Source of the DNA: a virus
Taxonomy: Duplodnaviria; Heunggongvirae; Uroviricota; Caudoviricetes
Reading direction: 5' to 3' (one strand)
Length of the DNA stretch: 64,000 nucleotides
IMG/VR virus record: IMGVR_UViG_2861079508_000001
Part shown: positions 1 to 62,912 of the stretch, in pieces
Numbering within the stretch: the first letter of the stretch is position 1
Layout of the letters: every line of letters begins with the position of its first letter
Program-made: the position numbers and the translations under genes
Notes under the pieces: generated by a model
The model's database searches: none
What the model was told of the DNA's origin: nothing
The model's input: the letters and a program-made list of their open reading frames with translations, nothing else

Positions 1-123
1 TAAATGTGATAGTACCTTCCCTGTACCACATGTTGAATATGCTCCTTGATTTGGTGGGCTATCCTTGCCCACCATTAAGTATGTACCTACTTATTTTTAC
101 CGATATAAATATTTTTTTCTACA

Positions 124-3100
124 TTACAGAAGGCCAATTCTTACTCGTAGGACGTTGTTATCGTCATAAACGTCAATCCGCTGACCATTTATGACCAGTC
201 GCCCATTACCCCCGCTATTACCGTTGATCTCAAGCGTTCCATTTTTGCCGAACCGCCATCCAGATCTACCGCTAACAAAATTGGTAGATTGCAGATCGCC
301 TACTTTTGCATTGGTGATTGTGCCATCCTTGATATACGCACCATTCATATAGGCGATACTGTTTTCGATAACAAATGGCGTGGTGATCTTCCCGTTAACA
401 GAGTTGACCAAACCAAACCTGTCAGCCTGCACCAAAAACTGAGAAAGGCCAGTGGTGTCGATACCAAGCGCAATACCAGCAACATACTTCTGCCCTCCGC
501 TCGTTGAAGTTTCCATTTTCAACGTCCACGCGGTTGACACTTTTTTGTTGGTATCAGCAATAGCTGTTGCCTGCTGTTGAATTGTCGCGGTATTTCCATC
601 CACCTCTGCTTTCAGAGTATCGATTCGCCCACTCAGAGCATTATCTGCCTGCGTTCTCGCTGTCGTTTCAGTTGTTACCGCCGCGGAAATGTTGGCTGCC
701 GTTTGAGACTCTAAGTTTGTGATTTGAGTCGCCAATGCAGCATCTTGCTCTGTACGCGTTTTCGTTTCGGTTGCTACAGCCGCTTTAATATCCTCTTTGT
801 ATTGAGAGGTCAGCTTGGTGATCTGAGACGACAACGCCGAGTCAGCATCAGTTCGAGCCTGCGTTTCAACTGCAACGGCCGCACTAATATCTTTCGCTGT
901 CTGTGCTTTTAAACTTGAAACCTCTTTTGTTAAAGCGGTATCACCATCAGCACGAGCCGTTGTTTCTCTGGCAAGAGATGCCTCGAGATCATTAGCTTTT
1001 GCTGTAAGAGACGAAATCTGAGTGGACAATGCACTATCGGCATCAGTCCTTGCCTTTGTCTCTACAGCAACCGCTGCGGCAATATCAGTTCCGGTTTGTG
1101 CTCGCAGGCTGTTAATTTCTCGTGAGAGCGCCTGGTCAGCACTTGCTCTGGCCTCCTGCTCCTGAGTGATGGCAGCGGATATATCACCGTCAACCTTTGA
1201 CTGAAGCTGGTTTATTTGTTTGGCTAACGCAGAGTCCCCGCTTGCTCGGGCCTCCTGCTCACTACGTATTGCAGCAGAAATATCATCATCAACCTTTGCC
1301 TGAAGTTGGGTGATCTGGCTTGCCAGAGCCGAATCTTCCGTTGCTCGGGCTTCTTGCTCTTCCTTAATAGCTGCGACGATATCGTTGCTTACTTTCGACT
1401 CAAGCTGAGTGATCTGTGTCGTCAGAGCTTCATCGGCAGATGTGCGAGCCTCCTGCTCTGTACTAATCGCCGCGCTGATATCTCCTTCAAACTTAGATTG
1501 CAGCTGAGTGACACGCTTTGCCAACGCTTCATCGCCATCGGCACGAGCGGTGGACTCTTCCAGAATACTGGCCTTAATGTCTTCGCCAATTTCTACGCGA
1601 ATTTCCTCAACCTTCGTGGCCATTGCAGACATATCATCAGCAAAGGTTTTCTGTGTTGTTGCGATCTTCGCGTTATTGACCATCTGCTTGTGCTGGTCTT
1701 CATCTTGACGAAGAGCTAGGTCAATATTTGTTTTGGCTAACGCCTCAATGTTCGTAGTCAGTTCTGCACTGGCACGATCGACCTCTGCAACCGTCTTTTT
1801 CATTTCTTCAACGGCAGCGGAGCTTTCCTCTACCGTTGACTGCAACACTTCCAGTTGTTTAGCGTTTGCAGCATCGCCTTCAACACGAGCCTCGCTTTCC
1901 TTAGCAATAAGAGCCGCCGCTTCATCTCTTGCAGCCTTTATTGCCTCGACTGTATTAGCGAGAGCTTTATCGTGTTCAGATACGGTGTTTTCGATTTCAA
2001 CAATTGCAGCATCAGTAGCATCAATTTTTTCAAACGCTTCATTGACCTTGTCGATCGTTGCCGAAACCTCACCTTTAAGCTCGGTTTGTGCGTTCTCCAA
2101 AGCATCGCTACGCTCGTTGAATTTTATTTCAAAACCCGCGAGGTTATCGCTGAACTGCTTATCTAATTCAGCTATATCTTCCTTAACGTCGTTTACCGAC
2201 CCCTCCAAAGATTCGACGCTCTGGTTGATATGCTCATTTAACTCGTCAACTGCTTCTTGAGAGGCTTTGCTGTTGATGTCCTCAAGCAGAGCCTGACCAA
2301 GCTCGGAAGATGTAATTTTGCCAGCCAGGAACGACAGTACATCGCGAGTTGTCGCCTCTGTACCCAAGTTTGAGTTCGGAGGGCTTAACATACCTCGCTT
2401 GTTCGATGCTCGAACCCAGTAATACCACGTTTCGCTATCCCCAAGACCAGCATGTGTAAAGGTGGTGCTTGCAGACTCTGCGATCAGTTTCGCCGTATCC
2501 AGATTGTTGGTCTGGGATGCGTAAACATTAATGTGATCAAGGTCTACCGAATCTGGATTAACCCAATTCAGTATCACATTACGATAGTCTCCAACGGCCG
2601 TTAATGACGTTGGTGCATCCGGCGGTGTCATTGTGCCCAGCACCTGATAAACGGTACTGATAATTTCTGTTTTTTTACCGTTGAATGAAACCGCATACAG
2701 TTGGAAGTCGTAGCGTCCATTCTCCGCGACATTAACGATTTCGTATTGTTCTTCGGTTACACGCGCCGATTGCCAGTTCGATACATTGTTTTCATCAGAA
2801 CGTCGCCAACTGATCCAATACTCTGGAGATTTCCCTTCCCATGTTGCAGTCAGTTTTACTGACAGGTTGCCCGGGCTTGAGAGGTAAGTCCCTTCAGTGA
2901 TTTGCAAATTAGACGGCTTGGAGTAAGTCGGGTCCAATACCGTCGTATTCTGCGGGATAAGCGTTGCACCATTGTCGATCGCCTCATATTTAGACGGATT
3001 GTTTTCAACAGCGGTGATGTCAAAGCTACCCGACGTTTCCCCCTGAGCGATGTTAACGATGCGAACGCGCATAGGTTCGAGATCTGGTTCTGTAATTGTC

Positions 3101-4842
3101 CAGACACCGTTCAAAACAGGCGTTTCCGCTGACGACAGAGCTTTTGAAAACGTAACCTTTGTTATGTTTTCGCCAGTTTCAAGAACATCGCGCTCAACGA
3201 TTTTGCCTTCCTGATTCAATATCCGAATAAAGCTGCCGCTTTTAGCTAACGACACAGGCGCATCGAGAGTGATGCTGTTTTTGGTAAACTCCACAATTCG
3301 ACCGGAGTTACGTTTACCTGCACGATATTTGTTCTGAATCAGAACGGTTTCACCGGGCATCAGAAATGAGGCGTCTAAGCCGGCAGTAAATGTAATTACA
3401 TCCGACTCCATTCTGGCGGTATACAAAAGCCACAAACCAACTCGGTGAGCCTGGCCTCGGCTTGTACATCCAAATGCTACGACTTCTGTTTTACGCTCAC
3501 CATAACGGCGCATTGCGTCCTGATCTTCAACGTACTCGATGTTTTGCTTATAACCGTCCTCCTTGTTGTTGTAGGTTACGAGCGCAACGGATGGGCGATC
3601 TTTACGCGCAGAACCTTTATAGGTAAACAGTCCATCTTTGACGTTGGAGTTGGTAAACATCATTACTGGATCTGATGGGCTATCCTGCATGATGTTAACC
3701 ATGCCACCAGCCCAAAACACCATGCCGCGGAATGCACCGGCAATATCCTGAATTAATCGGTATGCGTCTTGTCGACTGGTGATCTGCGTATTGATTGCAA
3801 AGCGTTTCTCTTTACCCCCAAAGCCATCATCGACCTCTTCGTCACAATATCGACCAATCTGGTAGAGCTGGCCGAGGTCAATCATGGATTCCGACACAAA
3901 TTGCCCAAGACCATACCGAGTATTGGTAAGCAAATCGTAGAGAATCCACGCAGGGTTTGAAGAAGACAACAGCTTAAAAGTACCGTCCCATACGCCGACA
4001 TAAGTATTGGTGTATTCGTTGTCTCGGATTTTGATACCGCGCACCAAATACGAACGGGAAGGCATTGTGCTACCAAACTGCTCTGAATTGACCTTCAAGC
4101 CAACAAGAGCAGAGTTAGGGTAGTTCATTGGCGTGTCGACAATCTCACCTATGGAATCAACCCATGTGTCGTTGTAGAGGTACTGGCTACTGTTATCATC
4201 TGTAAGACGAATCACCCTAACCTTGTATGCACGACCAGGCTTAGGTAGTTTCAGCTCATAGCTACGGTAATACACGCCGGTTTTCTTTGCCGTTAGCGTG
4301 ATATCAACGCTTTTCTCACCTTCTGCCACTACATCAGAAAATGTTGCGTCTCCGTTGGCGATCTGGAATTTGTACTTCACCGTAGTGCCATTTGTATCGC
4401 CAGAGCTTTTATCAACGCTACGTAAAGAGGGGAATTTCATGATGACACGAACGCGATCAGCTTCATCGTTATCGATTGAAACCGTAACGTCGTGTGTTTT
4501 TTTAAGCTGAATATTTACGGACTTAGGCGTTTCGACAAAATCAAAACCAGCCATTGGCGTCTGGTCTTGTGAGCCGTCACGAAAATCCCATGTAATACCG
4601 CTGAAGTTGGAAGAGCCATCTTCATTCAAGATCGGTAAATCGTCGATGAAGATCGACTTTGCGCCATTTACCAGGCCACCGATAACCCCCTCGCCAAGAA
4701 GGTCGAGGATGGCTGCCATAGCACGAGAATTGACAGTATCATCAGCTTCAACCGGGGTACGGCTGGAGCTTTTACTTTTCTTGCCACCAGCACCGGCAAT
4801 AAGAAGCGGTAATTTTTTCTTCTTGAACTGTTCCATGTCCAA
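124..4842 (-). CDS. central tail fibre / host specificity protein (lambda gpJ-like), 1572 aa, with tandem coiled-coil repeats
   Basis: Size and position at the distal end of the tail module after I/K/L/M-like genes; about 14 tandem ~25-aa repeats (DISAAI..EQEAR..ALA.QI.QLQSKV). Confidence 0.8.
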   Translation of the reverse strand: MDMEQFKKKKLPLLIAGAGGKKSKSSSRTPVEADDTVNSRAMAAILDLLGEGVIGGLVNGAKSIFIDDLPILNEDGSSNFSGITWDFRDGSQDQTPMAGFDFVETPKSVNIQLKKTHDVTVSIDNDEADRVRVIMKFPSLRSVDKSSGDTNGTTVKYKFQIANGDATFSDVVAEGEKSVDITLTAKKTGVYYRSYELKLPKPGRAYKVRVIRLTDDNSSQYLYNDTWVDSIGEIVDTPMNYPNSALVGLKVNSEQFGSTMPSRSYLVRGIKIRDNEYTNTYVGVWDGTFKLLSSSNPAWILYDLLTNTRYGLGQFVSESMIDLGQLYQIGRYCDEEVDDGFGGKEKRFAINTQITSRQDAYRLIQDIAGAFRGMVFWAGGMVNIMQDSPSDPVMMFTNSNVKDGLFTYKGSARKDRPSVALVTYNNKEDGYKQNIEYVEDQDAMRRYGERKTEVVAFGCTSRGQAHRVGLWLLYTARMESDVITFTAGLDASFLMPGETVLIQNKYRAGKRNSGRIVEFTKNSITLDAPVSLAKSGSFIRILNQEGKIVERDVLETGENITKVTFSKALSSAETPVLNGVWTITEPDLEPMRVRIVNIAQGETSGSFDITAVENNPSKYEAIDNGATLIPQNTTVLDPTYSKPSNLQITEGTYLSSPGNLSVKLTATWEGKSPEYWISWRRSDENNVSNWQSARVTEEQYEIVNVAENGRYDFQLYAVSFNGKKTEIISTVYQVLGTMTPPDAPTSLTAVGDYRNVILNWVNPDSVDLDHINVYASQTNNLDTAKLIAESASTTFTHAGLGDSETWYYWVRASNKRGMLSPPNSNLGTEATTRDVLSFLAGKITSSELGQALLEDINSKASQEAVDELNEHINQSVESLEGSVNDVKEDIAELDKQFSDNLAGFEIKFNERSDALENAQTELKGEVSATIDKVNEAFEKIDATDAAIVEIENTVSEHDKALANTVEAIKAARDEAAALIAKESEARVEGDAANAKQLEVLQSTVEESSAAVEEMKKTVAEVDRASAELTTNIEALAKTNIDLALRQDEDQHKQMVNNAKIATTQKTFADDMSAMATKVEEIRVEIGEDIKASILEESTARADGDEALAKRVTQLQSKFEGDISAAISTEQEARTSADEALTTQITQLESKVSNDIVAAIKEEQEARATEDSALASQITQLQAKVDDDISAAIRSEQEARASGDSALAKQINQLQSKVDGDISAAITQEQEARASADQALSREINSLRAQTGTDIAAAVAVETKARTDADSALSTQISSLTAKANDLEASLARETTARADGDTALTKEVSSLKAQTAKDISAAVAVETQARTDADSALSSQITKLTSQYKEDIKAAVATETKTRTEQDAALATQITNLESQTAANISAAVTTETTARTQADNALSGRIDTLKAEVDGNTATIQQQATAIADTNKKVSTAWTLKMETSTSGGQKYVAGIALGIDTTGLSQFLVQADRFGLVNSVNGKITTPFVIENSIAYMNGAYIKDGTITNAKVGDLQSTNFVSGRSGWRFGKNGTLEINGNSGGNGRLVINGQRIDVYDDNNVLRVRIGLL
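590..1700. repeat. tandem ~75-bp in-frame repeats inside the tail fibre gene
   Basis: Periodic nucleotide and amino-acid repeat visible in the ORF translation and the DNA. Confidence 0.7.
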
Positions 4843-4853
4843 AAAATCCTTGA

Positions 4854-5444
4854 TTACATAAGCTGGTCGATGGTGATAGAAGAACTCACGACCTGTGAGC
4901 CAACTAAAATTTCCTCGCCATAGATAAGCTGTACAGGGTTCCCCTGGTTTGTTGTGTTTTGAGGTCCATCAAAGTAATAAGAGTTCGAGTTATCCGCCTG
5001 CCTCACACTTTCGTTAGTGGCTTGCGGAGATATGATTTGCGCTATACCGCCCATCATCAGTGACAAACCGAGAGGCGCAAGAGCGGGCACCCATATCGAG
5101 GCAACCATTAATACTGCTCCAACAACCGTCTGAAACCATCCAAAAGCAGATCCACCACTTCCTCGCGGAACAGGGGTAATGCGGATTTTTGCAATATTGT
5201 CAGACTGCCCCATCATCTGATATTCACTCTCGTCCACAGACCACTTGTGGCCCTGTTTATTGGTGATCTGGATGTGGTATCTGTCATAGGTTTTGATATT
5301 GCGCTTCATCCATGCTTTAAACCCAGGCTTGTTGGCCTCAATTAAATCCAGAGCCTGTTTTGTATTACGCACCTTTAGATGCCAGTGGCGGCCAAAATGT
5401 TTGGCCATAGGGCCGCCAAGCTGCACATGAACTAACTCAGACAC
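4854..5444 (-). CDS. tail assembly protein (lambda gpI-like)
   Basis: 196 aa, hydrophobic C-terminal region, position between K-like and J-like genes. Confidence 0.6.
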   Translation of the reverse strand: MSELVHVQLGGPMAKHFGRHWHLKVRNTKQALDLIEANKPGFKAWMKRNIKTYDRYHIQITNKQGHKWSVDESEYQMMGQSDNIAKIRITPVPRGSGGSAFGWFQTVVGAVLMVASIWVPALAPLGLSLMMGGIAQIISPQATNESVRQADNSNSYYFDGPQNTTNQGNPVQLIYGEEILVGSQVVSSSITIDQLM

Positions 5445-6256
5445 GTCTCATCTCCCTTGAGCAAGTCTCTGTGACGCAAGTGATGCGTCGTATGTTTCTG
5501 ATACATTCCGCCGTAATAAGCACGACAACTTAGGCGGTCGATCTGGTGATGAAGAATCATTCCATCGCCGATATAAACCGCGCAGTGGTCAGGCATTTTC
5601 CCGTATTGGATAAAGAATACGTCCCCACGTTGAGGCTCTGTTCCGGGCGCAAGACGCACCAATCCCTCGTTACGGTAGTTCTGATCGAGAATGTCGTTAT
5701 CGCCGGTGTACCACGATGGAATATGCAGGTGTGCGTTCGGGTTTAGTTCGACGTTAAACTCACGCTTCAAATAGTCCCGACACAACATCCAGCAATCAAA
5801 TACGCCAAATACATACGGTCTGCCCAGGTATGGCATTTCGAAACCATCAGGTGTGATCACATTCATCTCGCTAAAATGGAAAGGGGCATCTCCCTCAACA
5901 TTCTTGCGAATAGCCAGAATCATCCACGGAACTTCCGTCGCTTCGCAGCCTGCACGATCGGCATCAGATGCTTCTGCTGATTCATCAGTATGTGAATGCC
6001 AGATTGCGATAACATCACCCGCATCCTCTGCCGCCATAATGTCGTCAACGTGCATTACAAAAGTGTTCTGCGGGTTCTCCGAAACATTCCGCGCTTCCAT
6101 AAAGCGATATTTGTCGCCATTAGTTCTAACCAGAAAGCCACACGCTTCATTAGGGTAGCGATTTATGGCGCAGAGATAGATTTGCTGCATAACGTCAGAG
6201 CCAAGCTCAGGGATTGCTTTATTACCCATACCGCGTAGCTCCAATAAATCCGCCAA
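5432..6256 (-). CDS. tail tip assembly protein (lambda gpK-like; JAB/MPN plus NlpC/P60 motifs)
   Basis: HSHTDESAEASD metalloprotease-like motif and DCWMLCRDY NlpC/P60-like Cys motif; synteny. Confidence 0.7.
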   Translation of the reverse strand: MADLLELRGMGNKAIPELGSDVMQQIYLCAINRYPNEACGFLVRTNGDKYRFMEARNVSENPQNTFVMHVDDIMAAEDAGDVIAIWHSHTDESAEASDADRAGCEATEVPWMILAIRKNVEGDAPFHFSEMNVITPDGFEMPYLGRPYVFGVFDCWMLCRDYLKREFNVELNPNAHLHIPSWYTGDNDILDQNYRNEGLVRLAPGTEPQRGDVFFIQYGKMPDHCAVYIGDGMILHHQIDRLSCRAYYGGMYQKHTTHHLRHRDLLKGDETCLS

Positions 6257-6953
6257 AATGGATCACACCGTCGGCAAAATAATTCCGACGCGCATTACAG
6301 GCGTCATAACGTTTTGTGCAGTAATCCGCACCAGACATAGACGTCTGCTGGTTATTTTTGTCGAAATATGGACCGGTATAGCCGCATTCTGGCCCTCGGT
6401 ATTTCCACGGGCAGGTGTTTTTAATGATCTGACGATACGGCAGTTGCACCCCCATCAAATCGAACACACTGGACAATTCAAACTCGACAACCTGATGAGT
6501 TTCGAGAGTTTTCTGTTCGATAAACCACATTTCATCCGGGAAATGTTGGTTTGGATCTGCTGTTGGGTTGCCGTCTTTAAAATTAACGGCATCGAGGAAG
6601 CGAGCCAGCGTCATCTTGCGAATAATGCGGCAGCCAACAAGATCGTCGTTCGCCTGAACTTCCGCAGAGACGGTTCCGGCAAAGTTCGATACCTGAATTT
6701 TTGGACGTGGCAACGTTCCCTGGCCCGTTTTGTCAAAGCCTGATGCTTTTATTGGCCACGGCTCGTATGTCACTCCTTGCCAGACGACCGGTTGCATCAG
6801 TTCGTTTGTTCCGGCGTGGAAGAATAGCTTCCCCCCTGAAGTTGTGTTCGACATATCCAGTACGAACAACTCAATGAGTGCAGAGGGAGATAAGCTCTGA
6901 ATATCAGCTTTAATTCCCATTGTTTCATCCTTGAAATAAGTAGGCGCTAACAT
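6222..6953 (-). CDS. minor tail protein (lambda gpL-like)
   Basis: C-terminal Cys motif CPWKYRGPECGYTG typical of gpL family; synteny. Confidence 0.7.
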   Translation of the reverse strand: MLAPTYFKDETMGIKADIQSLSPSALIELFVLDMSNTTSGGKLFFHAGTNELMQPVVWQGVTYEPWPIKASGFDKTGQGTLPRPKIQVSNFAGTVSAEVQANDDLVGCRIIRKMTLARFLDAVNFKDGNPTADPNQHFPDEMWFIEQKTLETHQVVEFELSSVFDLMGVQLPYRQIIKNTCPWKYRGPECGYTGPYFDKNNQQTSMSGADYCTKRYDACNARRNYFADGVIHFGGFIGATRYG

Positions 6954-7002
6954 CCTGTCAGCGCCACAATGATAGTAAATCAGTACTTACTTATCCAGAT
7001 GC

Positions 7003-7338
7003 TTAAGCCTCAAATACTTGTCTGAATGTAGCAGTTAAGACACAGTACCCCTGATATCGCTTGACCGTATGACTGTCACATACAACTACAATCTGCTTGC
7101 CTCTTGGATTAACCCAATAGAACGATTCAACGCCTGATCGCTCAGTCAGGAAGTCATCGATTGCATTAATTTCGTTGTATGATCTGGTAAAGGTTAACGA
7201 CCATTCTTCTTTAATACGATTAAGACCTTGAGCCTGTCGCTGCTCGTAGTCATCACCAAAATTAAGTACCGTTACATTCGGTTTTACGCTTTTTTCAGAT
7301 TCGTAATCTGGATACCAATTAAACGTTTGTCTTTCCAT
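7003..7338 (-). CDS. minor tail protein (lambda gpM-like)
   Basis: 111 aa ORF immediately downstream of tape measure gene; synteny. Confidence 0.6.
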   Translation of the reverse strand: MERQTFNWYPDYESEKSVKPNVTVLNFGDDYEQRQAQGLNRIKEEWSLTFTRSYNEINAIDDFLTERSGVESFYWVNPRGKQIVVVCDSHTVKRYQGYCVLTATFRQVFEA

Positions 7339-7380
7339 CTCACATCCTTGTGAGACTGCCCCGGTCGGGGCAGTCGATAG

Positions 7381-10300
7381 TTAGTTACGTTGAGTGTTTG
7401 GGTTGAGAGATCCGCCAGGGCGTTTCTCTTGAGCGATAGTCTCAAGCGCGATTGCTTTCATCCGTTGAGCGGCATTGTTCCATATGCTTTCTGTATCGCC
7501 GGATTCAGTTGTGCTACCGTCACTATGGACGTTGATCTCAATTGATACCGGAGAAAGAACATTTCCTCCTCCACTCATACCATCGGTACTGAGCGTTACA
7601 GGGATTGTTCGACCATCAGGCAATGGAACATACGCCTCATTCATATCGCCTTCCCCAAACAACGCCAATTGAGGTGAGTTGGCGATACCGCCTTTCTGGT
7701 ATGCCCGGAGCGGGATCACGCCGTCTTTTCCGAATATGCCACCATTTGCAAACTTCGGAATTGCAGGAATACCATTCGTGCCATCGGCAGCAGAACTGGT
7801 CAGATTGTTGAACCCGGAAGTTGAGCCAGAAGAACCGGACATCAATCCATCGAATCCACCACCAGCCCATACTGAAACCAAACCAGATGCAACTGTCGCG
7901 CCGAAATTCAACCACTTATTACCAGAGCCGGAAGCATTAGCTCCAAGCATTGCAAACGCGGCAGACAGAGCGCCGGTAACAGAGCTGAGGTTCTGCATCG
8001 AGAAGATGGAGTCCTTCACTGCTTTTGTCTCAGCATCTTTGGCTTCGGTGCTATCAAATAGCCCCGATACCCAGCTACCAATCGCATTTGTTGCTGTGCC
8101 AATTGCGCTGGTGGTCTGCTGTGTTGTTTGCCCCAATCCAGTTACCGAACTGGACGTCTCCTTCGTGGCTTCTCCTACCGACTTGTCGCCATTAACAGTG
8201 TTGCCCATTCGTACACCTTGATTGGCAACGGCAGAAGCAACTCCAGTGAGCAAATTGCCACTCTGTGAACTACCAGCTGCGGTGGTTCCCATCCCCAACA
8301 TGTTCATTAGAGGCAGCGTGATTTGCGACTTCACGACCATATTGGTGATATCTTTCAAAATGGACTGAGATAGGCTGGAGAAGCTCATCTTCCCGTTAAT
8401 AACGAAATCAGTCAGGACATCAGTTAAGCCACTAAACAAATCAGTCCAGGTGCTTTCGATCTGCTCTGCCAAGTTTTCGTATTCCAGTGCCAACTTCTGC
8501 GTCGCAGTCCCCGTCTCTTTAATAAGCGCGGTATTGCCAGCAGCAATCAGTTGATTGATTTTCTTTGTATAAAGCGCCACAACTTTAGGATCAGACGCCT
8601 TATCACGAAGTTCTATCAACGCTTTGAGATTGCGGTTGTAGGTGTCTTCGAAATCGGCAACTTTCTCTTCGCGAGACGGCGTATAGCCAGCACTAATAAT
8701 GGAATCCGCCTCCGGTGCCCAAGTGGAGATCATCTGCTCAACATTGCGGCGATTAAACATCTCACGATATTCAGGTGTCGCATTTTTGAGGTCTTCAAGA
8801 CGTTTTTTCGCCTTGTCGATCATCTCTTGAGTGATGAACTCGTTAGGAACCGCATTAGCCAAATCTGTCAGCGATTTCGTTGTATCGCGAAGAGACTGAT
8901 CAAACGATACCGTAGCCTTAGAGCTTTCACCCATTTGCCCCATAAGCTGATCGGCTTTGTCCAGAGCCTTCTGGTATCCGGCTGCCAGTTTCTGTTGCGC
9001 TGCCTGTTCCTTCTTGGCCGCACGCTGCGAGGCGTTAGCTGATCGTTGGGCTGCTTTCTCGGCAGCTGCTGCATCCTGTTCACGAGCTTTAGTTAGTGCA
9101 GCAATGGCTGCGGCACGCTCTTCATCGCTCATTTTCTCCAGAGAGCTGGCGCTGGATGCTTTCTGCAAATTAAGCTGCGTCTTGAGTTGTTTAGGCCCAA
9201 TAATCGGCTTACCTTCGAAGTCCATCATCGGAGTGCCGTCAGGCAAAGTACGCTGATAAGTCGCAGAATTCATCTGGTTTCGCATATATTGCGCCAACGC
9301 CTTCTGAGCAGCTTTATCAGTTGTACCTAACCCAAGAACAGTCCCCTGGTTTGACATTACGCCCTTACCAGTTTTGGCCGCGTTATCTCTCTCGAACTCT
9401 GCCTGAGTAAGTTCCTGAGCAACGGCTTCCAAATGCTCCTGATAACCACGAATACTGCCTTGCAGTTTCTGGATTTGCTCGGTATTGCCATCCTTTTTGG
9501 CTTTTTCAAGCTGATCATTAAGAGTCGCGATTTGCTTCTCGGTCGCATTCTTACGAGAAGAAAGTGAATCAACCAGTTTTTGCGCAGGCTCCAGATAGCT
9601 TTTGTTTACCGTTTCACGTAACGGTGCCAATAGCTTGTTCTTTTCGTCATCTGAAAGTGAACCGTCATCATTGATTTTCTGGATCTTATCCAGAGCCTCC
9701 TGCCGGGCTTTCACGAATGTTGCCGCGAAAATCTGGTTTTCCGCTCGAATTTTCTCAATCTGAGATTCGGCAGCCTCTTTAGCCAAACGCTTTGCTACAG
9801 CGCCGTCACCAAGAGCTATCGTGCCGGTTATCTTTTGATACTCTTCCTGATTTTTTTTCAGGCGTGCTTCGATGTCAGCCTTCGACTCTTTGTGAGTAAT
9901 AACACCGGCAGAGTTAGATACGTAATTAACACCCTCACCAGTTTTTAATGCTCGTTGATCAGCAAGAATCTGCTTTTCGAGCTTTTCTGCGCGGTCGGCC
10001 ATTTGTGCACGTTTGGCCGCCGTCATCGCCTCTGGTATTTTCCTAATCTCGTCAACGACCTTTGAAGTTTCGCTGCGGAGCATGGTCATGTACGTGATTA
10101 GGCCAGCAACAGCTACAGTGGCAACTGTAAATGCTGCCCCTATAGGGTTTGCTGCAATGAACGCCGTTAATCCAGCAAAAGCGCCTTTAAGCCCCGTAAT
10201 CGCCCCACGGATGGCGAAAATAAGAGAGGGGATCGGAGCCAGCCCCATACGTGCCGCACGATTGAATCGGGTTACTGCTGTAGCGCCGAGGTTAAATGGA

Positions 10301-11119: not shown

Positions 11120-11173
11120 TGAACCGCCCCGGGAATCCTGGAGACTAAACTCCCTGAGAAAGAGGTAAACAGG

Positions 11174-12387: not shown

Positions 12388-12429
12388 GTTCACAGATAAA
12401 ACACTCTCCAGGAAACCCGGGGCGGTTCA

Positions 12430-27083: not shown

Positions 27084-27087
27084 TAAG

Positions 27088-50784: not shown

Positions 50785-50845
50785 TTTTTATCCTTAACCC
50801 ATTTTGAGAGTTTTATTGTCGCAATGTCGAAGAGGCGAACAATTT

Positions 50846-52376: not shown

Positions 52377-52377
52377 A

Positions 52378-53508: not shown

Positions 53509-53555
53509 TTATTCATTAAGTGAGTTTACATTTATTGAGGGAACAAGGCCAGATA

Positions 53556-53574
53556 GATAAAAAAATGGTGGCCA
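53556..53574 (-). terminator. intrinsic terminator
   Basis: Hairpin TGGTGGCC-ATA-GGCCACCA followed by T-run on minus strand. Confidence 0.6.
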
Positions 53575-53652
53575 TAGGCCACCAAAAACGAATAGTTGTT
53601 TCAGAAATTTAACGCGCCAGCGCAATATACACAGATAGATAACTACCTACAA

Positions 53653-54522: not shown

Positions 54523-54599
54523 GCTAGTTTTGTTCCTTCTTAATTCTTGTGATCCATTGTGGCCCAGCGTTGCCAGGCCACATAATGCTTTGTATCGGT

Positions 54600-55742
54600 T
54601 TACAGGTCTGCAAACTGGCTTAGAGAAGCCTTATCCACGGTAGAATCGATCTGACCTACCAGATATGTGCTTTGCTCTGCCTCTTGTGGTGCAATTTGCA
54701 GTGTGTCGGTTAACAACCACTTGTTCATCCAGACCAGCGGGTCAGTGGTAACTTCTGGAAATAAAGCCTTCAGGCCAAGACGATTCATAGCCAGATTGGT
54801 GCGGTATTTTACATAGGTTTTGAGAATATCCGCGTTTAAACCAATCATCGAACCGTCTTTGAAGAGATAGTCTGCCCAGTTCATTTCTTGTTCGGCGACT
54901 GATTTCATGGTGTCGTAAATGACGTTTTCTTCATCAGCAGCAATCTCTTTCCACAATAAACCTTCGCGACCGGTACGCATGAAGCGGATCATGCGTTCAG
55001 TTCCTTCGCAATGCAGAGCTTCATCACGGGCAATAAAGCGCATAATTTTGGTGTTACCCTCAAGCAACTTCCGTTCACCAAAGGCAAACGTACATGCAAA
55101 ACTTACGTAGAAACGGATCGCCTCAAGCGCATTAATGGACACCAACGTGCGGAAAAGCTGACGATGCAAAGGGTATGGCTCCCAGCCATATTCATTTACG
55201 TACAGACGCTCAAATTCCTTCTCACCTAACGACTGGCGCTCGCAGGTCATCCCATAAAGCCTGTCATATTCAGCAGAGATACTGATCGCTCGGTTGATGA
55301 TTTCTTCATCCGTAACAATACCGTCAAAAACAATGCTCGGATCGTCCACCATGCCACGAATAATGTGGGTGTAGCTGCGGCTATGGATAGTCTCAGAGAA
55401 AGACCACGTTTCAACCCACGTTTCCAGTTCAGGAATAGAGATAAGCGGCAGCAGCGTTGCATTTGGGCTACGTCCCTGAACTGAATCGAGTAACGTTTGA
55501 TAACGGAGATTGCTCAGAAAAATGTGACGTTCGTGGTCCCGCAGCTTCGTGTTGAAGTCGATACGATCGCTCGAAATATCAACTTCTTCCGGCCGCCAGA
55601 AGAAAGACAATTGACGTTCAATCAACTTTTCAAAATCACGGTATTTTTGCTGATCGTAACGTGCCACGTTGACAGATTGTCCGAGGAACATAGGCTCTTT
55701 GGTTGCATCATTAGCACCCAAACGGAACGTTGAATATGACAT
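54600..55742 (-). CDS. nrdB: ribonucleotide reductase class Ia beta subunit
   Basis: About 70 percent identity by recall to E. coli NrdB over full length; start at MSYSTF. Confidence 0.9.
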
Positions 55743-55772
55743 GTGTTTTTCCTTTTTCTTTTTTATGTGTTT

Positions 55773-55804
55773 AAACAAGTTGTTATCTTATTTGTTTAAA
55801 CAAG
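55773..55804. promoter_or_regulatory. palindromic motif AAACAAGTTGTTATCT plus GTTTAAACAAGG
   Basis: between nrdA and nrdB. Confidence 0.4.
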
Positions 55805-55847
55805 GCTTACAAATCAAAGAGAAGGTGGGGATACACCCCACCATATG

Positions 55848-58163
55848 TCAGATTTTGCAGGCTCCGTCGCACTCATCTTCTGGCTCGACGGCTACAGCTT
55901 GCGTCAGTGGATTCTGCGGTTCGTCGTCATCACGCTTTCCTGCCCCATCTCTGGTGTTGTGGTAGTAAAGCGTTTTAACTCCCATCTTGTAGGCGAGAAG
56001 CACATCTGACAGTAGCGTCATCATTGGGACTTTATCGCCTTCAAAGCGAGAAGGGTCATAGTTGGTATTGGCTGAAATAGCCTGGTCAAAGAACTTCTGG
56101 ATGATCGCCACCTTTGTCAGATAGCCGCGGTTGTCCGGCATATCCCACAGGTATTCATACTGTTCCTTCAGTTTTTCAAACTCAGGCACGACCATCTTGA
56201 CGATGCCGTCCTTAGAAGATTTCACTGACACCGGGCCACGAGGCGGTTCGATGCCGTTGGTGGAATTAGTGATCTGGCTGGAAGTCTCGCATGGCATTTG
56301 TGCCGTCAGTGTGGAGTTGCGAAGGCCGTATTTTGCAATACGTTCACGCAGTTCTTCCCACGGCATCTTTAACTCAAAGTTGGTTTCGCCACTTTCGTCT
56401 AATGAAGAACGGTAATGGTCGATCGGCAACTGACCAATTGCGTACTTGGTCTGCTCAAACCAGTCACACTCACCTTTTGCTTCAGCAAGTCGGCAGCTGG
56501 CATCAAGAAGGTAATACTGGATAGCTTCGAACGTTTCATGCACCAGTTTATTGCCAGCGGTATCAGAATAACGAACGCCATTTTTTGCCAGGTAATAAGC
56601 AAAGTTGGTTACACCAATTCCCAAGCTACGACGAGCTTTGGCAGGCACTTCGGCTGCCTCCATCGGATAGTCTTGATAATCCAGTAACGAATCCAGTGCA
56701 GCAACGGCATAGAACGCCACCTCTTTAAGAGACTCCAGTGAACGGATGGCTCCGAGGTTAAAAGCGGATAAAGTGCATAGCGCGATCTCACCGTTCGGGT
56801 CGTCGGTAAATGCCAGTGGACGGGTGGGTAGGGTGATCTCCATACACAGGTTTGACTGGCGGACAGGTGCAAGAGCAGGAATGAAAGCGCCATGCTCATT
56901 AATATGATCGACGTTCGCAATATAAATTCGGCCCGTGGACGCTCGTTCCTGCATCAGAGATGAGAACAGCTCAATGGCAGGTACTGACTTCTTGCGAATT
57001 GAATCATCGGCTTCGTATTTATGGTACAGCTTTTCAAACAGATCCTGGTCTGTGAAGAAGGCTTCGTACATATCAGGCACATCATGCGGGCTGAACAGAG
57101 TGATGTTCTCGCTTCTGACGAGTCGACGGTACATCAGACGGTTACTCATGACACCGTAATCAAGATGGCGAACGCGGTTTTCATCGATACCACGGTTATT
57201 TTTCACCACCAGCAGACTTTCAACTTCAAGATGCCAAATCGGGTAAAACGCTGTTGCTGCGCCACCACGGACACCACCTTGCGAGCAAGATTTAACAGCA
57301 GTCTGGAAATGCTTCAGGAATGGAATAACTCCGGTATGGGTGGCTTCACCATTGCGGATCTCGCTGCCCAGCGCACGGATACGGCCAAAACCAATACCAA
57401 TTCCAGCACGACGTGAAACGTAGTCGATAATTGCGGCTGAAGCTGCACTAATCCCTTTCAGACTATCGCCAGACTCAATCAGCACACAACTGGAGAACTG
57501 ACGGGTTGGAGTACGGACGCCGGCCATGATTGGTGTGGGCAGAGACAGTTTGAACGTACTTGTAACGTCATAGAAACCTTTGACCATCTCCATACGTGTT
57601 TTGCCAGCGCAGTCGTCTTCCCAATTCTGGAACAGACACATGCCCACCAGCATATAGATATGTTGCGGCCCCTCATGAATCTCACCAGTAACACGGTTTT
57701 GAACGAGGTATTTGCTTTGCAATTGCACCGTAGCCGCATAGCCAAAAAGATCGTCACGTTTAGGCTTAATGTAATTGCCGAGTTCTTCGATCTCTTCAAA
57801 TGAATAATGTGTCAGCAAATCCTTGTCATAAACGCCCTTGCTAACGTTCTTGATAATGTGTTGGTAGAAGTTCGGATAGTCGTAACGACCGAAGGCATCT
57901 TTGCGGATTTTAAAAATGTTCAGGCGGGCAGCCACCTGCGAGTAATTTGGTGCATCTGGTGAGATCAAATCAGCGGCAGATTTAACCAAAGCCTCATGCA
58001 ACTGGCTGGTGGTAATCCCATCAAAAATGCTGGCCGCAGCTCCCATTGCTACAGCGGATGCGCTTACACCACGAATGCCTTCTACGCCATACATTACGAC
58101 GCGGTTGTATTTTTCTTCGGATAACGGCTCTGTTTGGCCGTTACGTTTTACGATGCTTATCAT
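55848..58163 (-). CDS. nrdA: ribonucleotide reductase class Ia alpha subunit
   Basis: Full-length similarity to E. coli NrdA including C-terminal CxxC tail. Confidence 0.9.
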   Translation of the reverse strand: MISIVKRNGQTEPLSEEKYNRVVMYGVEGIRGVSASAVAMGAAASIFDGITTSQLHEALVKSAADLISPDAPNYSQVAARLNIFKIRKDAFGRYDYPNFYQHIIKNVSKGVYDKDLLTHYSFEEIEELGNYIKPKRDDLFGYAATVQLQSKYLVQNRVTGEIHEGPQHIYMLVGMCLFQNWEDDCAGKTRMEMVKGFYDVTSTFKLSLPTPIMAGVRTPTRQFSSCVLIESGDSLKGISAASAAIIDYVSRRAGIGIGFGRIRALGSEIRNGEATHTGVIPFLKHFQTAVKSCSQGGVRGGAATAFYPIWHLEVESLLVVKNNRGIDENRVRHLDYGVMSNRLMYRRLVRSENITLFSPHDVPDMYEAFFTDQDLFEKLYHKYEADDSIRKKSVPAIELFSSLMQERASTGRIYIANVDHINEHGAFIPALAPVRQSNLCMEITLPTRPLAFTDDPNGEIALCTLSAFNLGAIRSLESLKEVAFYAVAALDSLLDYQDYPMEAAEVPAKARRSLGIGVTNFAYYLAKNGVRYSDTAGNKLVHETFEAIQYYLLDASCRLAEAKGECDWFEQTKYAIGQLPIDHYRSSLDESGETNFELKMPWEELRERIAKYGLRNSTLTAQMPCETSSQITNSTNGIEPPRGPVSVKSSKDGIVKMVVPEFEKLKEQYEYLWDMPDNRGYLTKVAIIQKFFDQAISANTNYDPSRFEGDKVPMMTLLSDVLLAYKMGVKTLYYHNTRDGAGKRDDDEPQNPLTQAVAVEPEDECDGACKI

Positions 58164-58196
58164 GTATCACCAAATAAAGAGGGCCACTATATTTAG

Positions 58197-58222
58197 TGGC
58201 CCATGTTAATAGATAAGCACTT
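58197..58222. promoter_or_regulatory. palindromic motif GATAAG-CACTTACCTATC upstream of nrdA
   Basis: member of TAAGTA-N-TACTTA family. Confidence 0.4.
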
Positions 58223-58236
58223 ACCTATCAATGAGA

Positions 58237-58806
58237 TCAAATGAGAGACTTGAGAACATCGCGCACCTGGCGAAACTGATCTGTTTGCATACCGGTATGG
58301 ATGGCAGCCACCGCATCAGCCAAATGTTCGTTTTTGTTCACGAGAACATCCTGTCCAGATTGCTTACGACGCAGCCACGGTGCTTTAGGGTGTTTTTTCG
58401 TAGCCCACTGGATAATCTCTTCTTTCGATGTAGTAAGTTTATTGCCAACAAAATGCTTGATTTCGTTTGGAGTGACCTGGATCAATGGCTTATCCACACA
58501 CGCAAGTACACCGATACAAATACCGTAAGACGTCTGCGAACGAGAGTTTTGGCTCCCAACCGGTAGTTCACAAAAAACCATATTCGCCTTATCAATGATT
58601 GGCTTCGCAACACGCCATATTTCACTGGCACGGCGCAGATCGTCACTGTTCACACGAACGGTCTTTTTGTTACTCCCCGCTTTAGTCTCAACAAGAGTAA
58701 GGCCGTGAATCTCAAGTTCGTCCGTTTCAAGGTCTAAAGTGCCCACAGCAAGCCCAAAGTTGCTCATAGAGGGATCAACACCAACTACGCTGATTTTTTT
58801 ACTCAT
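58237..58806 (-). CDS. RuvC-like Holliday junction resolvase (putative)
   Basis: N-terminal VVGVDPS and C-terminal ADAVAAIHTG resemble RuvC-family motifs. Confidence 0.55.
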   Translation of the reverse strand: MSKKISVVGVDPSMSNFGLAVGTLDLETDELEIHGLTLVETKAGSNKKTVRVNSDDLRRASEIWRVAKPIIDKANMVFCELPVGSQNSRSQTSYGICIGVLACVDKPLIQVTPNEIKHFVGNKLTTSKEEIIQWATKKHPKAPWLRRKQSGQDVLVNKNEHLADAVAAIHTGMQTDQFRQVRDVLKSLI

Positions 58807-58815
58807 ATAGTCTCC

Positions 58816-59559
58816 TTACCATGTTCCCCATAGAGGGTTTTCCAATAATCTCGCCTCCAACGAATTGGCTACTATTGCCGTTTGCAACGTTGGTTGGGGA
58901 TAGTTTGCAAAGTCTGAATACTCATTTTCCTGCGTGACACGTTTATCTACGGCATGTTTAACGCCACTTGCTATGAAATGACGCATGATGCCCAACAGCC
59001 TCCGACTGTCTGCACTATCGTTTGCTAAAACATGAGGGAGCTGAAGTTCGATTTCTACCATTTCTCCATACTTACCAACAAACTGTAGTTTGTCCGCACT
59101 GTACTTTTTATCCCTCCTTTGGATAAGGAAACCAGTAAAAGCATCACCTGGCGATGCCAAACTATCCACCCGCTTATTGGCAAGTCGAATAAGGTTCGTG
59201 AAAGCCATACAGTGATGCGCACCCATTCCCCCAAAGAACCCTTCGCTATTAATGTTAAGATCTTCAGTTTCATGGGATGCAATAAACCCAGGCCCGACGT
59301 TGGGAAGATATCCCCCCTCAACAAAAGGATTAATCAGGATCGGCGCAATACATCCAGGTGGTAGTGATTTCAAACTTTGCATCAATGGTGTCTCGGATAT
59401 TAGACCAAGCAACGCGGCGAATTGTACTCCGTCAATATTGTTGCTGCCCCATAGAATACGTGGAGCCGCACCATTGGAAGTATGCCCATTGATCAGTTTT
59501 ATCGACTGCATCACTGCAAATACCTGCAAAAACTGCGAGCGGCTTAATTTAAACGACAT
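58816..59559 (-). CDS. hypothetical protein
   Basis: 247 aa ORF. Confidence 0.45.
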   Translation of the reverse strand: MSFKLSRSQFLQVFAVMQSIKLINGHTSNGAAPRILWGSNNIDGVQFAALLGLISETPLMQSLKSLPPGCIAPILINPFVEGGYLPNVGPGFIASHETEDLNINSEGFFGGMGAHHCMAFTNLIRLANKRVDSLASPGDAFTGFLIQRRDKKYSADKLQFVGKYGEMVEIELQLPHVLANDSADSRRLLGIMRHFIASGVKHAVDKRVTQENEYSDFANYPQPTLQTAIVANSLEARLLENPLWGTW

Positions 59560-61465
59560 AGCTGCGCCCCTCTTTAACTTCCAGCGTAATAGTTTCCCGG
59601 AACCATGACTTCATCTCTTTATGGGAGATAATCAGCACAGTACCTCGCTCGCGAGCTTTGGACTCCAGAATACCCATGAGGCGTTCAAGACCGGCTGTAT
59701 CGAGTGCATCGTCAATTTCGTCGCCGATAAACAAATCGATGTTTTTACTCGCCCGGTTACTAACCAGATCCTGCAATGCCAAAGAACACGCAATGCGAAC
59801 CTTCCGCTTCTCACCACCAGAGAGGGTTTGGAACGACTTACTTGAACCTTTCTTCTGCACACTAATGTTGAATTTGTCGCGATACTCACCTTTTTTAGTG
59901 ACATCCATCGTCGACCACTCAGCAGTAATATTCCCGTCAGACAACGTATTGAGATACTCGGCAGTGCGTGTATTCAGGAAAGGCGTAACAGACGTCAAAA
60001 TATGAGAACGCACCCCGGCAGGAGAGTAGACCTGACGAGCTTTTTCCAATAGCAACGTTTGTTCCTGAATAGCCTTCAACTCATCTTTTAAGGACTTGAA
60101 GGTAGACTTACTGGATACCAGGTTATCTTCGTGTCTGGCGATAAGAGCAATAAACGGATTAATCTCTTTTGATATACGATCGACCTCAGTACGAGCACGA
60201 GTCACAAGAGACTCAATAGCAACAACCTCCTTCTCACGATGACGCAAAGATGAGAGTTGTTTCGTAAGCTCTTCAATCCGGGCAATGATAGCCGTTACAT
60301 CAGGTGTCGTTTTAACAAGGGCAGACTCAATGCTTAACGCTTTCTCAAGATTCGTTTTGTGTTTAGCCATTGCCTCTGCAAGTGTCTTCGCCTGACCAAT
60401 TTCCTGACGTGCTTGTTCAATGAAATTCTCCTTCACCGTTGATAGATCTTCTTCGCAGTAGGCTTTGCCACAAGTAGGGCATGGTGATCCCACTTTAGTA
60501 CCAACCTCTTCTGCTTTGGTCTTAAAATTACGCGCGCGGCTCATTGCATCAGCCTGACTATTTTCTGTAGCTTTGATGCTTGCCCGAATATCAGTTATCG
60601 CACCACGAACTTTGAGCAACTTGGCGTCATGTTCTTCTTTTGAGGCTAACTTTTTGCGCTCACTTTCGATTGCCTTCTCGGTATCACGGCTCTGTTCGGG
60701 AAGAGTGCGGATCTCAAGTTCAACTTCCGTTAACTCAACTTCGGCACTGGCCAGCCCAGCCAGGGCATCGTCATAACGTTTAGAACGCTCTTGCTCCCAT
60801 GATTCAGAGGAGGCTTTCGCTGACTCAATTTCTGACTGTGTTGCCTCAATGGTCGAGATTGTCGACTCCAATTTGGTTTTAACCACATCCATACGTGCGG
60901 CAGCTGCATTAGCTCGCTCACGAGCAATAGCGTAGGCGCGTGTCAGTCTGTCAACGCCAGCGGCTTCTTCTACGATGGTTTTGAGGTTTTTGTCGGACAT
61001 TCCAGGTAAATCTGGCATAGCTTCTTGGCTCGCATAGATGGAAGCCATGAAAACCTCTTTAGATGCACCGATCAGACGCTCGACGAACTCTTGCGTCAGC
61101 GCATCTTTGCCTTTCGTCATATCGCCGTCTTCACCACGAACGATAAGCCGATTTTTGAACTCTTTGTGTTTACGGTGACGAATGATCGCATATCTCTTGC
61201 CTTCATCCTCGATGGTTACTGCAACACGACAGTTCTTTTCATGGTCGGTAGACAACACATCGTCCCCCTTCACACCATGAGCTGTTTCGCCATAAAGACA
61301 CCACATCAGGCTATTCATTAGCGTTGACTTTCCAGAGCCATTACTTGATGCGGAACTATCATCACTATTAACACCCTGAATGAGCACTAAACCACGCTGA
61401 TCTAACTCGACCTCCGCGCTGGCGATAGCCATAAAATTCTCAACCTGGAGCTTTAAAAACTTCAT
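59549..61465 (-). CDS. SbcC/Rad50-like ATPase
   Basis: Walker A NGSGKST, long coiled coil with zinc-hook CPTC, signature LSGGEKRK, Walker B FIGDEID. Confidence 0.75.
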   Translation of the reverse strand: MKFLKLQVENFMAIASAEVELDQRGLVLIQGVNSDDSSASSNGSGKSTLMNSLMWCLYGETAHGVKGDDVLSTDHEKNCRVAVTIEDEGKRYAIIRHRKHKEFKNRLIVRGEDGDMTKGKDALTQEFVERLIGASKEVFMASIYASQEAMPDLPGMSDKNLKTIVEEAAGVDRLTRAYAIARERANAAAARMDVVKTKLESTISTIEATQSEIESAKASSESWEQERSKRYDDALAGLASAEVELTEVELEIRTLPEQSRDTEKAIESERKKLASKEEHDAKLLKVRGAITDIRASIKATENSQADAMSRARNFKTKAEEVGTKVGSPCPTCGKAYCEEDLSTVKENFIEQARQEIGQAKTLAEAMAKHKTNLEKALSIESALVKTTPDVTAIIARIEELTKQLSSLRHREKEVVAIESLVTRARTEVDRISKEINPFIALIARHEDNLVSSKSTFKSLKDELKAIQEQTLLLEKARQVYSPAGVRSHILTSVTPFLNTRTAEYLNTLSDGNITAEWSTMDVTKKGEYRDKFNISVQKKGSSKSFQTLSGGEKRKVRIACSLALQDLVSNRASKNIDLFIGDEIDDALDTAGLERLMGILESKARERGTVLIISHKEMKSWFRETITLEVKEGRSYVV

Positions 61466-62780: not shown

Positions 62781-62882
62781 GTGTTTTTCCTTTGTGGTTA
62801 TTTTGATACAAATTTTAAGAGCAATGAGAAGGTAAACAACTATGCATAACGGTATGTTAGGAATGAAACGAGCGTCTTAATA

Positions 62883-62912
62883 TACAAAACTTATAAGTAA
62901 GTATATACCTAT
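62883..62912. promoter_or_regulatory. palindromic motif ATAAGTAAGTATATACCTAT upstream of SbcD-like gene
   Basis: member of TAAGTA-N-TACTTA family. Confidence 0.4.

Follow-up and report, generated by a model that had tools for sequence, protein, structure and literature searches.

A conserved two-fold symmetric DNA dyad at lytic-gene promoters of SSU5/pHCM2-type phage-plasmids, with a candidate role as repressor operator

A 64-kb stretch of DNA (64,000 nt, hereafter the window) from IMG/VR virus record IMGVR_UViG_2861079508_000001 belongs to an SSU5/pHCM2-type phage-plasmid and carries an 18-bp palindromic dyad dispersed through its intergenic DNA. We conclude that this dyad is very probably a conserved protein-binding DNA site that marks and controls the promoters of lytic genes. 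A more specific proposal, to which we give about an even chance, is that the dyads are immunity-repressor operators embedded in sigma-70-type promoters of essentially all lytic operons, with CYRAN_45 as the best candidate for the protein that binds them. The window lies in reverse complement orientation and shares 98% identity with Escherichia phage Cyrano (pLF82) and with CMS-2020a, with Klebsiella phage-plasmids and Salmonella phage SSU5 each ~80% identical to it. Its genes, nearly all on the − strand, were named by tblastn transfer of the Cyrano annotation. Tail, head, and packaging genes occupy 124–23695, a ParB-ParB-ABC-ABC-DBD operon lies at 23892–27065, and further content includes a divergent UvsW gene, an accessory region, and a long DNA-metabolism block at 41–64 kb. 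Intergenic DNA makes up 10% of the window.

An earlier note on this DNA had described about 14 copies of TAAGTA-N-TACTTA. A palindrome family does exist at all 13 positions cited there, but the literal pattern does not describe it: TAAGTA-N(0–12)-TACTTA matches the window four times (76, 14794, 27084, and 34141; 0.01 expected), and the remaining sites carry TAGGTA, TACCTA, or TAGATA in its place. The corrected motif is an 18-bp dyad, TA(A/G)GTAAGY·RCTTAC(C/T)TA, with 7-bp arms, a 4-bp centre, and an invariant core of GTAAG-NN-CTTAC. Over 18–26 bp the consensus is two-fold symmetric, with the left arm conserved only slightly better, a core of GGTAAG-NN-CTTACC, and half-site centres ~9–10 bp apart. 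With no prior on the motif, the most intergenic-enriched 7-mer in the window is TAAGTAA/TTACTTA (12 intergenic versus 4 coding copies). A scan of the spacer between the arms TARGTAA and TTACYTA gave enrichment at 0, 4, and 8 bp only, a consequence of the 4-bp periodicity of the arms; with a 5-bp spacer, 7-bp arms were not enriched in the window.

Allowing at most two mismatches, the 18-bp dyad matches the window 15 times, 14 of them intergenic, against 0.47 matches in simulations. A 26-bp position weight matrix (PWM) finds 18–20 sites, recovering every site cited earlier and adding 20293 (inside the portal gene), 34145, 47627, and 42378, about five beyond the 13 overall; 17 of 18 dyads in the window are intergenic. 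For the complete Cyrano genome the tally at 16 bits or more is 23 sites in intergenic DNA and one in coding DNA, where sequence simulated at intergenic composition yields 0.00. Scored genome-wide in the window and in Cyrano, the enrichment at intergenic positions is therefore far beyond chance. The distance of 10–40 bp upstream of gene starts given in the earlier note is true of only part of the sites, since dyad centres in the window lie 20–170 bp from the ATG. Many dyads lie 7–19 bp past the preceding stop codon.

The dyads are conserved at orthologous junctions. SSU5 keeps ~21 of them at the same junctions, and dyads are likewise kept there in a Klebsiella plasmid whose capsid genes are only 70% identical. 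An Acinetobacter baumannii phage-plasmid (69% nucleotide identity) from another bacterial order carries the variant ATTAGTAAGC·GCTTACTAAT, again at the same junctions. A scan of a viral contig collection for the dyad returned many loci from distant relatives with 58–65% GC and proteins 30–55% identical to those of Cyrano. In these GC-rich relatives the dyads are positioned at UvsW|ParB, upstream of TerS, at TerL|portal, before and after the major capsid protein (MCP) gene, at Tc1|tail, tailM|tailL, and UvsY|SSB, before the helicase, and at RuvC|NrdA and CobT|CobS. Because an AT-rich 18-mer is shared by GC-rich genomes at such low protein identity, we consider it to have been held constant. One viral locus (IMGVR_UViG_3300047160_001655) was set aside as uninformative, since it contains a repetitive palindrome array and homologues of the candidate binders and of SSU5-type proteins were not found in it. 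Between its positions 11600 and 11720, two perfect TAAGTAAGTAAGTACTTACTTAC palindromes lie 55 bp apart, each followed by TACGAAGATCTTCGTA, with other tandem repeats around them; this array is probably unrelated to the dyad family.

What is conserved from site to site is base identity and not mere pairing, and compensatory changes are absent. An RNA-level role would have a hairpin in the polycistronic mRNA act as a processing site, stabiliser, translational operator, or terminator, and the dyads are indeed palindromic and located in transcribed intergenic DNA, several of them abutting ribosome-binding sites. We nonetheless consider such a role extremely unlikely. Among 54 distinct sites the arm mismatches show no sense preference for G·U over A·C (28 are sense G·U-compatible, 28 antisense G·U-compatible, and 41 neither), and pairing on the transcribed strand is conserved neither through compensation nor through wobble. 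Predicted RNA hairpins of the dyads are weak (−1 to −7 kcal/mol) and lack a U-tract, and one dyad (27084–27101) is common to two divergent genes. Because base identity is conserved with no pairing bias and the hairpins are weak, we interpret the dyad as a DNA site. The selected feature is a two-fold symmetric DNA element, as is characteristic of sites for dimeric DNA-binding proteins.

In the enteric sequences alone, a −10 or −35 fixed in position outside the dyad is not evident. Promoter context is clear in the GC-rich relatives, where hexamers predicted from sequence occur in two registers. In class A (TerL|portal, tailM|tailL, and MCP|hyp7) the dyad fills the spacer of cTTGnnn-17 bp-TACAAT, with TTG at −16 to −14 in 13 sense and 0 antisense sites, TACAAT at +7 to +12, and a Shine–Dalgarno sequence and ATG 18–30 nt further downstream. 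In class B (hyp4|MCP and Tc1|tail) the dyad directly follows TTGCAA-18 bp-TATTGT, and the helicase dyad lies in a 5′ leader ~35 nt past a TATAAT. Two window sites show the same arrangements: the site inside the portal gene belongs to class A (TTGAAA-17-TATGAT, a 10/12 match) and the Dam site to class B (TTGCCA-17-AAAAAT with TG). The dyad is thus found within the 17-bp spacer between putative hexamers at the 13 GC-rich sites and the in-portal site, and directly past a putative −10 at Dam, ParB119, the repressor gene, and the MCP and tail genes of GC-rich relatives. A TAnnnT at +7 to +12 is symmetric (26 sense versus 27 antisense) and so belongs to the palindrome itself.

The 13-to-0 strand asymmetry, together with the transcript step-ups described below, bears out the suggestion that the dyads are a real cis-regulatory class tied to promoters of structural and DNA-metabolism genes. 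Two other suggestions of the earlier note are not supported. A phage-specific promoter class with a dedicated polymerase or sigma factor is at odds with flanking hexamers of ordinary sigma-70 type, and homologues of an RNA polymerase, a sigma factor, or Lpa were not found. Nor do the sites form one of two temporally separated regulons, because copies of one dyad stand before genes for replication, nucleotide metabolism, recombination, packaging, heads, tails, and lysis alike and do not set early apart from late. The differing placement of the dyad with respect to the −10 (spacer, start site, or 5′ leader) and its presence over the predicted repressor start site fit an operator better than a promoter-recognition element, and the 6 of 19 Cyrano sites that lie at most 28 bp from the next ATG are too near to be promoter elements of that gene.

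Four junctions show the order stop codon, dyad, terminator-like hairpin, ribosome-binding site (hairpins at 53–73, 6943–6965, 18345–18361, and 58181–58202), and the stop-dyad-hairpin order recurs past MCP and tail genes in Acinetobacter and in the GC-rich clade. The terminator stems begin at +13 to +19. The arrangement would make sense with transcription starting ~19 nt past the dyad centre: a promoter's own transcripts would then be missing the 5′ arm of the stem and so avoid termination, whereas transcripts reading through from upstream would be stopped. Sigma-70-like matches in the window are rarer than in shuffled sequence (8 versus 20.9 expected at 1–20000, and 20 versus 28.9 at 40001–60000), which suggests selection against spurious promoters inside the long lytic operons.

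RNA-seq expression values for Cyrano were taken from the supplementary table of PMC9928086, which has gene-level resolution and describes a mixed population. For the lysogen in LB the table gives a median of 9.8, and most dyad-linked genes stand at background, about 5–12 (PMC9928086). The genes hyp4 (10.9) and MCP (7.4) are at this level despite the near-consensus promoter predicted inside the portal gene. CYRAN_45 reaches 95.8, whereas DBD123 is at 7.8 and ParB119 at the detection floor (4.99). Expression is 9-fold lower in hyp31 than in hyp30, on the other side of the long hairpin plus dyad described below. In macrophage-derived bacteria at 6 h, some lytic genes are up in the same table, with step-ups (log2) at several dyads: Tc1 to Tail +2.5, RecA to memb56 +3.6, hyp59 to hyp60 +3.7, primase to hyp34 +2.4, and portal to hyp4 to MCP +1.2 and +1.6. 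Drops occur across junctions with a dyad plus hairpin (MCP to Ig −3.0, tailM to tailL −1.9; PMC9928086). These values are compatible with the dyads lying at promoters shut off in the lysogen. Lysogen expression of CYRAN_43 (Cyrano 40268–40822, outside the window; ~7000 normalised reads, 723-fold over background in PMC9928086) far exceeds that of every other Cyrano gene; it encodes a 184-aa hypothetical protein with no Pfam matches and lies beside the integrase/repressor block.

Three DNA-binding proteins conserved in all lineages, ParB119, DBD123, and CYRAN_45, are candidates for the binder. CYRAN_45 is an XRE-family helix-turn-helix (HTH) repressor encoded next to the integrase, outside the window. 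Cyrano has a single perfect core, GGTAAGTGCTTACC, located 39 bp from the CYRAN_45 ATG and over the predicted start site of that gene's promoter, where the repressor strand reads TTTACA-16-TAATAT-C-GGTAAGCACTTACC; the 26-bp PWM missed this core because the outer TA arms are absent there. This promoter-plus-dyad block is kept in E. coli, Yersinia pestis pFra, Enterobacter, and Klebsiella, with proteins 56–66% identical and drifted flanks, so that in four enterobacterial lineages a dyad stands at the repressor gene's own putative promoter. Homologues of CYRAN_45 occur in 994 plasmids with a host spectrum equal to that of the capsid module, and one in a GC-rich relative has dyads flanking its gene. 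HTH positions Q28, N39, and N41 are invariant among homologues down to 27% identity. Searches of solved structures with CYRAN_45 and DBD123 gave nothing informative.

We hypothesize that a phage-plasmid-encoded dimeric HTH repressor, the CYRAN_45 orthologue, occupies ~20 dispersed sites in the plasmid (lysogenic) state, sites that lie within the host-type (sigma-70) promoters of lytic genes or shortly after them. Bound within a 17-bp spacer or at a start site, the repressor would keep RNA polymerase from binding; bound in a leader or between genes, it would block read-through. Replication, nucleotide-metabolism, packaging, head, tail, and lysis operons would thereby be kept silent, and the repressor's own strong promoter, whose predicted start site is covered by a weaker, core-only dyad, would be under negative autoregulation.

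Several points weigh against this proposal. Protein binding to the dyad, repression through that binding, and CYRAN_45 as the binder are all steps that we infer. Some dyad-linked genes are expressed in the lysogen (UvsW 46, hyp34 43.7, and hyp81 117 in the table of PMC9928086), so repression would be at best incomplete at some sites. One regulator acting on both replication and structural genes offers no obvious temporal order. Apart from the in-portal and Dam sites, most window sites have a −10-like hexamer in one of the two registers and no −35; the lack of a recognisable −35 at most sites of the enteric lineage would suit an activator-dependent promoter, and the half-site AAGT/ACTT is identical to that of the activator-dependent −22 box of P1. 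Finally, SSU5, the sole family member in which a CYRAN_45 homologue was not found, retains high-scoring dyads; this is expected after recent loss of the repressor and equally expected if the dyad acts in the lytic cycle. SSU5 has been called virulent (PMC5427195). The argument that its lack of the gene excludes CYRAN_45 as the binder was dropped, given homologues in every other lineage and the core dyad at the gene's promoter.

Part of this evidence would suit the main competing explanation, which we regard as possible but rather unlikely: activator-dependent lytic or late promoters resembling those served by Lpa in P1, at which a phage dimer on the dyad, centred ~20 bp upstream of the start site, would replace the −35 and recruit host RNA polymerase. 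The candidate activator would be DBD123 (23892–24158), an 88-aa protein encoded just upstream of TerS, present in every lineage at the same position and weakly similar to winged-helix proteins (Lrs14/Sta1-type HTH). In annotated P1 late promoters a 9-bp palindrome, AAGT(G/T)ACTT, stands 4 bp ahead of a −10 and shares the AAGT/ACTT half-site of the dyad, and the P1 order lpa-LPpac-pacA is mirrored by DBD123-dyad-TerS, where the short dyad is AAGTAACTT. Such promoters would also account for the −10-like hexamer at +7 to +12 and absent −35 of most enteric sites, for the retention of all sites in repressor-less SSU5, and for the step-ups at several dyads on partial induction (PMC9928086). Compared directly with the P1-type AAGTNACTT plus 4 bp plus −10, the half-site is the same and the short copy AAGTAACTT (~23838) fits, but the other sites are 18-bp dyads lying ~1.5 bp nearer the −10-like hexamer and twice as long as the P1 box, and that hexamer is part of the palindrome, as the strand symmetry of TAnnnT indicates.

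The position of many dyads also argues against an activator, which could not work from over a start site, in a leader, or at most 28 bp from an ATG; start-site dyads occur at strong putative promoters of the repressor gene, Dam, and, in GC-rich relatives, MCP and tail genes. The class-A promoters of GC-rich relatives are near-consensus (TTG-17-TACAAT), so activation there should be unnecessary. DBD123 is up in condition B6 with no rise of MCP or Tail in the table of PMC9928086. Homology to Lpa itself was rejected: the Lpa profile (PF25716) had zero matches at E ≤ 10 among all open reading frames (ORFs) of the window, Cyrano, SSU5, the Acinetobacter locus, and 120 viral loci, and DBD123 is unrelated by profile comparison (hhalign probability 0.8%).

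The third conserved protein, ParB119 (26385–27065), aligns to Spo0J (1vz0, E 3e-9) over residues 7–154, contains a GEHRWRAA motif, and by this similarity is taken to be a genuine ParB. ParB proteins bind palindromes of 13–16 bp, and the dyads might accordingly be parS-like loading sites of ParB119, with clamps at ~20 sites silencing, organizing, or condensing the genome. The Spo0J alignment passes the N-terminal domain towards the HTH region, and the cognate gene stands beside a site: its operon, syntenic in all lineages, is headed by a dyad 27–31 bp upstream that is kept in E. coli, SSU5, Acinetobacter, and the GC-rich clade and would fit autoregulation. We still judge this explanation very unlikely. 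Partition or condensation would not require sites confined almost wholly to promoters and intergenic DNA, a perfect core at the promoter of the XRE repressor is left unexplained, and we know of no ParB-type regulator (KorB class I–III operators) that binds within a promoter spacer. ParB119, moreover, is at the read-count floor in the lysogen (PMC9928086) and cannot be the factor silencing lytic genes there. A lytic-only variant, in which CTPase-type clamps of ParB119 and ParB120 with two ABC/SMC-like ATPases slide from ~20 dyads and the XRE repressor merely competes, strikes us as highly doubtful; such clamps would switch lytic promoters or organize replicated DNA for packaging, as a KorB-like or T4-clamp-like mobile regulator. 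The operon at 24168–27065 encodes two ParB-N-domain proteins and two ABC-type ATPases with no membrane domains, lies directly upstream of the terminase genes in all lineages (E. coli, Acinetobacter, GC-rich clade), and is silent in the lysogen.

The dyads of the window, here taken as putative repressor operators, are all read on the − strand apart from the one between UvsW and ParB119 and the long hairpin upstream of TerS, which have no assigned strand. Among the tail genes, the dyad at the tailJ|tail-fibre junction (76–93; sense TAAGTAGGTACATACTTA; 23.6 bits) is followed by the GC hairpin at 53–73. The one at tailM|tailL (6976–6993; 24.0 bits) lies 19 bp past the stop codon and 31 bp ahead of the ATG, with the terminator-like hairpin at 6943–6965 after it, and a third lies between Tc1 and the major tail (Ig) gene (14794–14811; 24.3 bits). 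In the head region, the MCP|Ig-like dyad (18369–18386; 22.7 bits) precedes the intrinsic terminator at 18345–18361. The dyad within the 3′ end of the portal gene (20281–20309, core 20285–20302; 29.3 bits) has TTGAAA-17 bp-TATGAT around it, these flanks matching sigma-70 at 10 of 12 positions, and lies 109 bp upstream of the scaffold gene (hyp4), ahead of MCP. The TerL|portal dyad (21792–21809; 19.8 bits) occupies the whole 26-bp intergenic gap, and its orthologues in relatives are class-A promoters.

In the divergent control region of UvsW and ParB119, the dyad at 27084–27101 (26.1 bits) is 27 bp from the ParB119 ATG; it is flanked by TATAAT/TATTAT on one side and on the other by TTTACA-18-TACACT (27055–27084, + strand, towards UvsW). 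A weaker dyad marks hyp106|hyp107 (34137–34154; 16.3 bits), and DUF4942|Ead has two (42370–42412), one strong (42395–42412; 27.2 bits) and one weak (42370–42387; 16.6 bits). Within the DNA-metabolism block, the centre of the RNaseH|hyp83 dyad (46446–46463; 27.7 bits) is 10 bp past the stop codon and the hyp80|hyp81 dyad (47619–47636; 19.6 bits) is half-degenerate. The class-B site before Dam (48659–48704; dyad 48659–48676; 27.2 bits) lies 21 bp from the ATG and directly downstream of TTGCCA-17 bp-(TG)AAAAAT (48704–48676). The ThyX dyad (53498–53515; 23.8 bits) is 25 bp upstream of the start, with a possible 14-bp short variant, TAGGTAGTTATCTA, nearby at ~53636–53649. The last two are at RuvC|NrdA (58210–58227; 29.2 bits), followed by the intrinsic terminator at 58181–58202, and at ASCH|SbcD (62894–62911; 25.8 bits).

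The earlier note had also placed a copy in the centre of a long hairpin. A dyad is present there, in the loop of a GC-clamped hairpin upstream of TerS (23811–23869), but in shortened form and not as the full dyad: AATAAGTAACTTATT at ~23834–23851. In distant relatives the position ahead of TerS that corresponds to this short version, AAGTAACTT (~23835), is taken by full dyads. The hairpin, GCCTGCTTCTGTATATA...TATATACAGAAGCAGGC with an AT-rich loop, has three copies per genome (window 23811–23869 and ~47975–48035; Cyrano 31184, 78108, and the record ends). One copy lies between DBD123 and TerS, and because the deposited Cyrano and SSU5 records begin mid-hairpin, it may hold a packaging or terminus site. 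Another separates the ParA operon, which is expressed in lysogeny, from the silent hyp31-helicase operon. In GC-rich relatives, dyads before MCP and tail genes also lie in the loops of longer inverted repeats.

The distinction drawn earlier between the dyad and an AACAA-NN-TTGTT family stands, as that family precedes other genes. Its sense form, TAAGAAAACAA-NN-TTGTTTAA, occurs 22–44 bp upstream of ParA, hyp58, NrdB, hyp87, hyp101, and others, with copies in the window at, e.g., 34544, 35029, 37528, 44110, 44824, and 55772, copies in Cyrano at 29263, 58599, 70330, 81282, and 93169, and a degenerate copy in the repressor|hyp46 immunity region. This family makes up a regulon of its own.

Two other features concern this particular phage-plasmid. 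Its tape-measure gene is interrupted at 11119–12429 by a 1.3-kb insertion absent from Cyrano, with two + strand ORFs bearing HTH_Tnp_1 and rve integrase-core domains, the organization of an IS3-family insertion sequence. Because the gene is split, this copy is probably incapable of making functional tails. An ORF at 29406–30008 (+ strand) is FljA-like (Pfam Flag1_repress, E 2.5e-84), of the phase-1 flagellin repressor family, and has a Cyrano counterpart with 78% identity only; it is possibly a moron through which the plasmid could change flagellar expression of its host.

Phage-plasmids of the SSU5/pHCM2/pMT1 type are frequent in clinical Escherichia, Klebsiella, Enterobacter, Salmonella Typhi, Yersinia pestis (pFra/pMT1), and Acinetobacter, and the module occurs in about 950–1000 plasmid-collection records, some with resistance genes. 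In the searchable literature we came across no account of how genes of this group are regulated, or of the dyad. An operator at ~20 lytic promoters, combined with an autoregulated candidate repressor, offers a testable model of how these plasmids stay silent and switch to virus production, and the dyad serves as a sequence signature for locating the group's promoters and recognising distant relatives. If the repressor-operator proposal is true, the virulent behaviour of SSU5 would be explained by its missing repressor.

Among known systems, the C1 repressor of P1 is, as CYRAN_45 would be, a phage-plasmid immunity repressor whose scattered operators (Oref, Ossb, Oban, Olpa, and Oc1 are annotated in the P1 record) lie mostly over sigma-70 lytic promoters, with a set at its own gene. 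It differs in that its operators are asymmetric 17-mers and C1, at 283 aa, is unrelated to XRE proteins. Most morphogenetic genes of P1 are under indirect control through Lpa, whereas here a symmetric dyad directly fronts head, tail, and lysis genes. The P1 late promoters, with their −22 box (AAGTNACTT) and −10, resemble the dyads in having a palindrome with an AAGT/ACTT half-site just upstream of a −10. In both cases the palindrome precedes many operons for morphogenesis and also separates a small regulator gene from the terminase genes. Their box is 9 bp long and centred at −21, compared with 14–20 bp and about −19.5 here, where dyads also lie over start sites and in leaders and an Lpa homologue was not found in any genome examined.

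Plasmid proteins that coordinate expression from a dozen or so palindromes near promoters are known from RK2 (KorB at OB) and from the dispersed SopB centromeres of N15, and Noc at its NBS sites on the B. subtilis chromosome is a ParB-type system with dispersed sites. Here too a ParB-family gene is headed by a dyad; the differences are that ParB119 is not expressed in the lysogen and that the sites are placed within promoters instead of next to them or at a distance. Mycobacteriophage L5 (cluster A) has ~20–30 stoperators per genome bound by its repressor gp71 in short intergenic gaps of early and late lytic operons, often at gene boundaries as the dyads are, and its prophage is silenced by a block to polymerase. 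Stoperators are asymmetric 13-mers in one orientation, whereas the dyads are symmetric and many lie within promoter hexamers. The design is best explained as a set of dispersed operators, P1-C1-like or L5-like, that uses a symmetric site.

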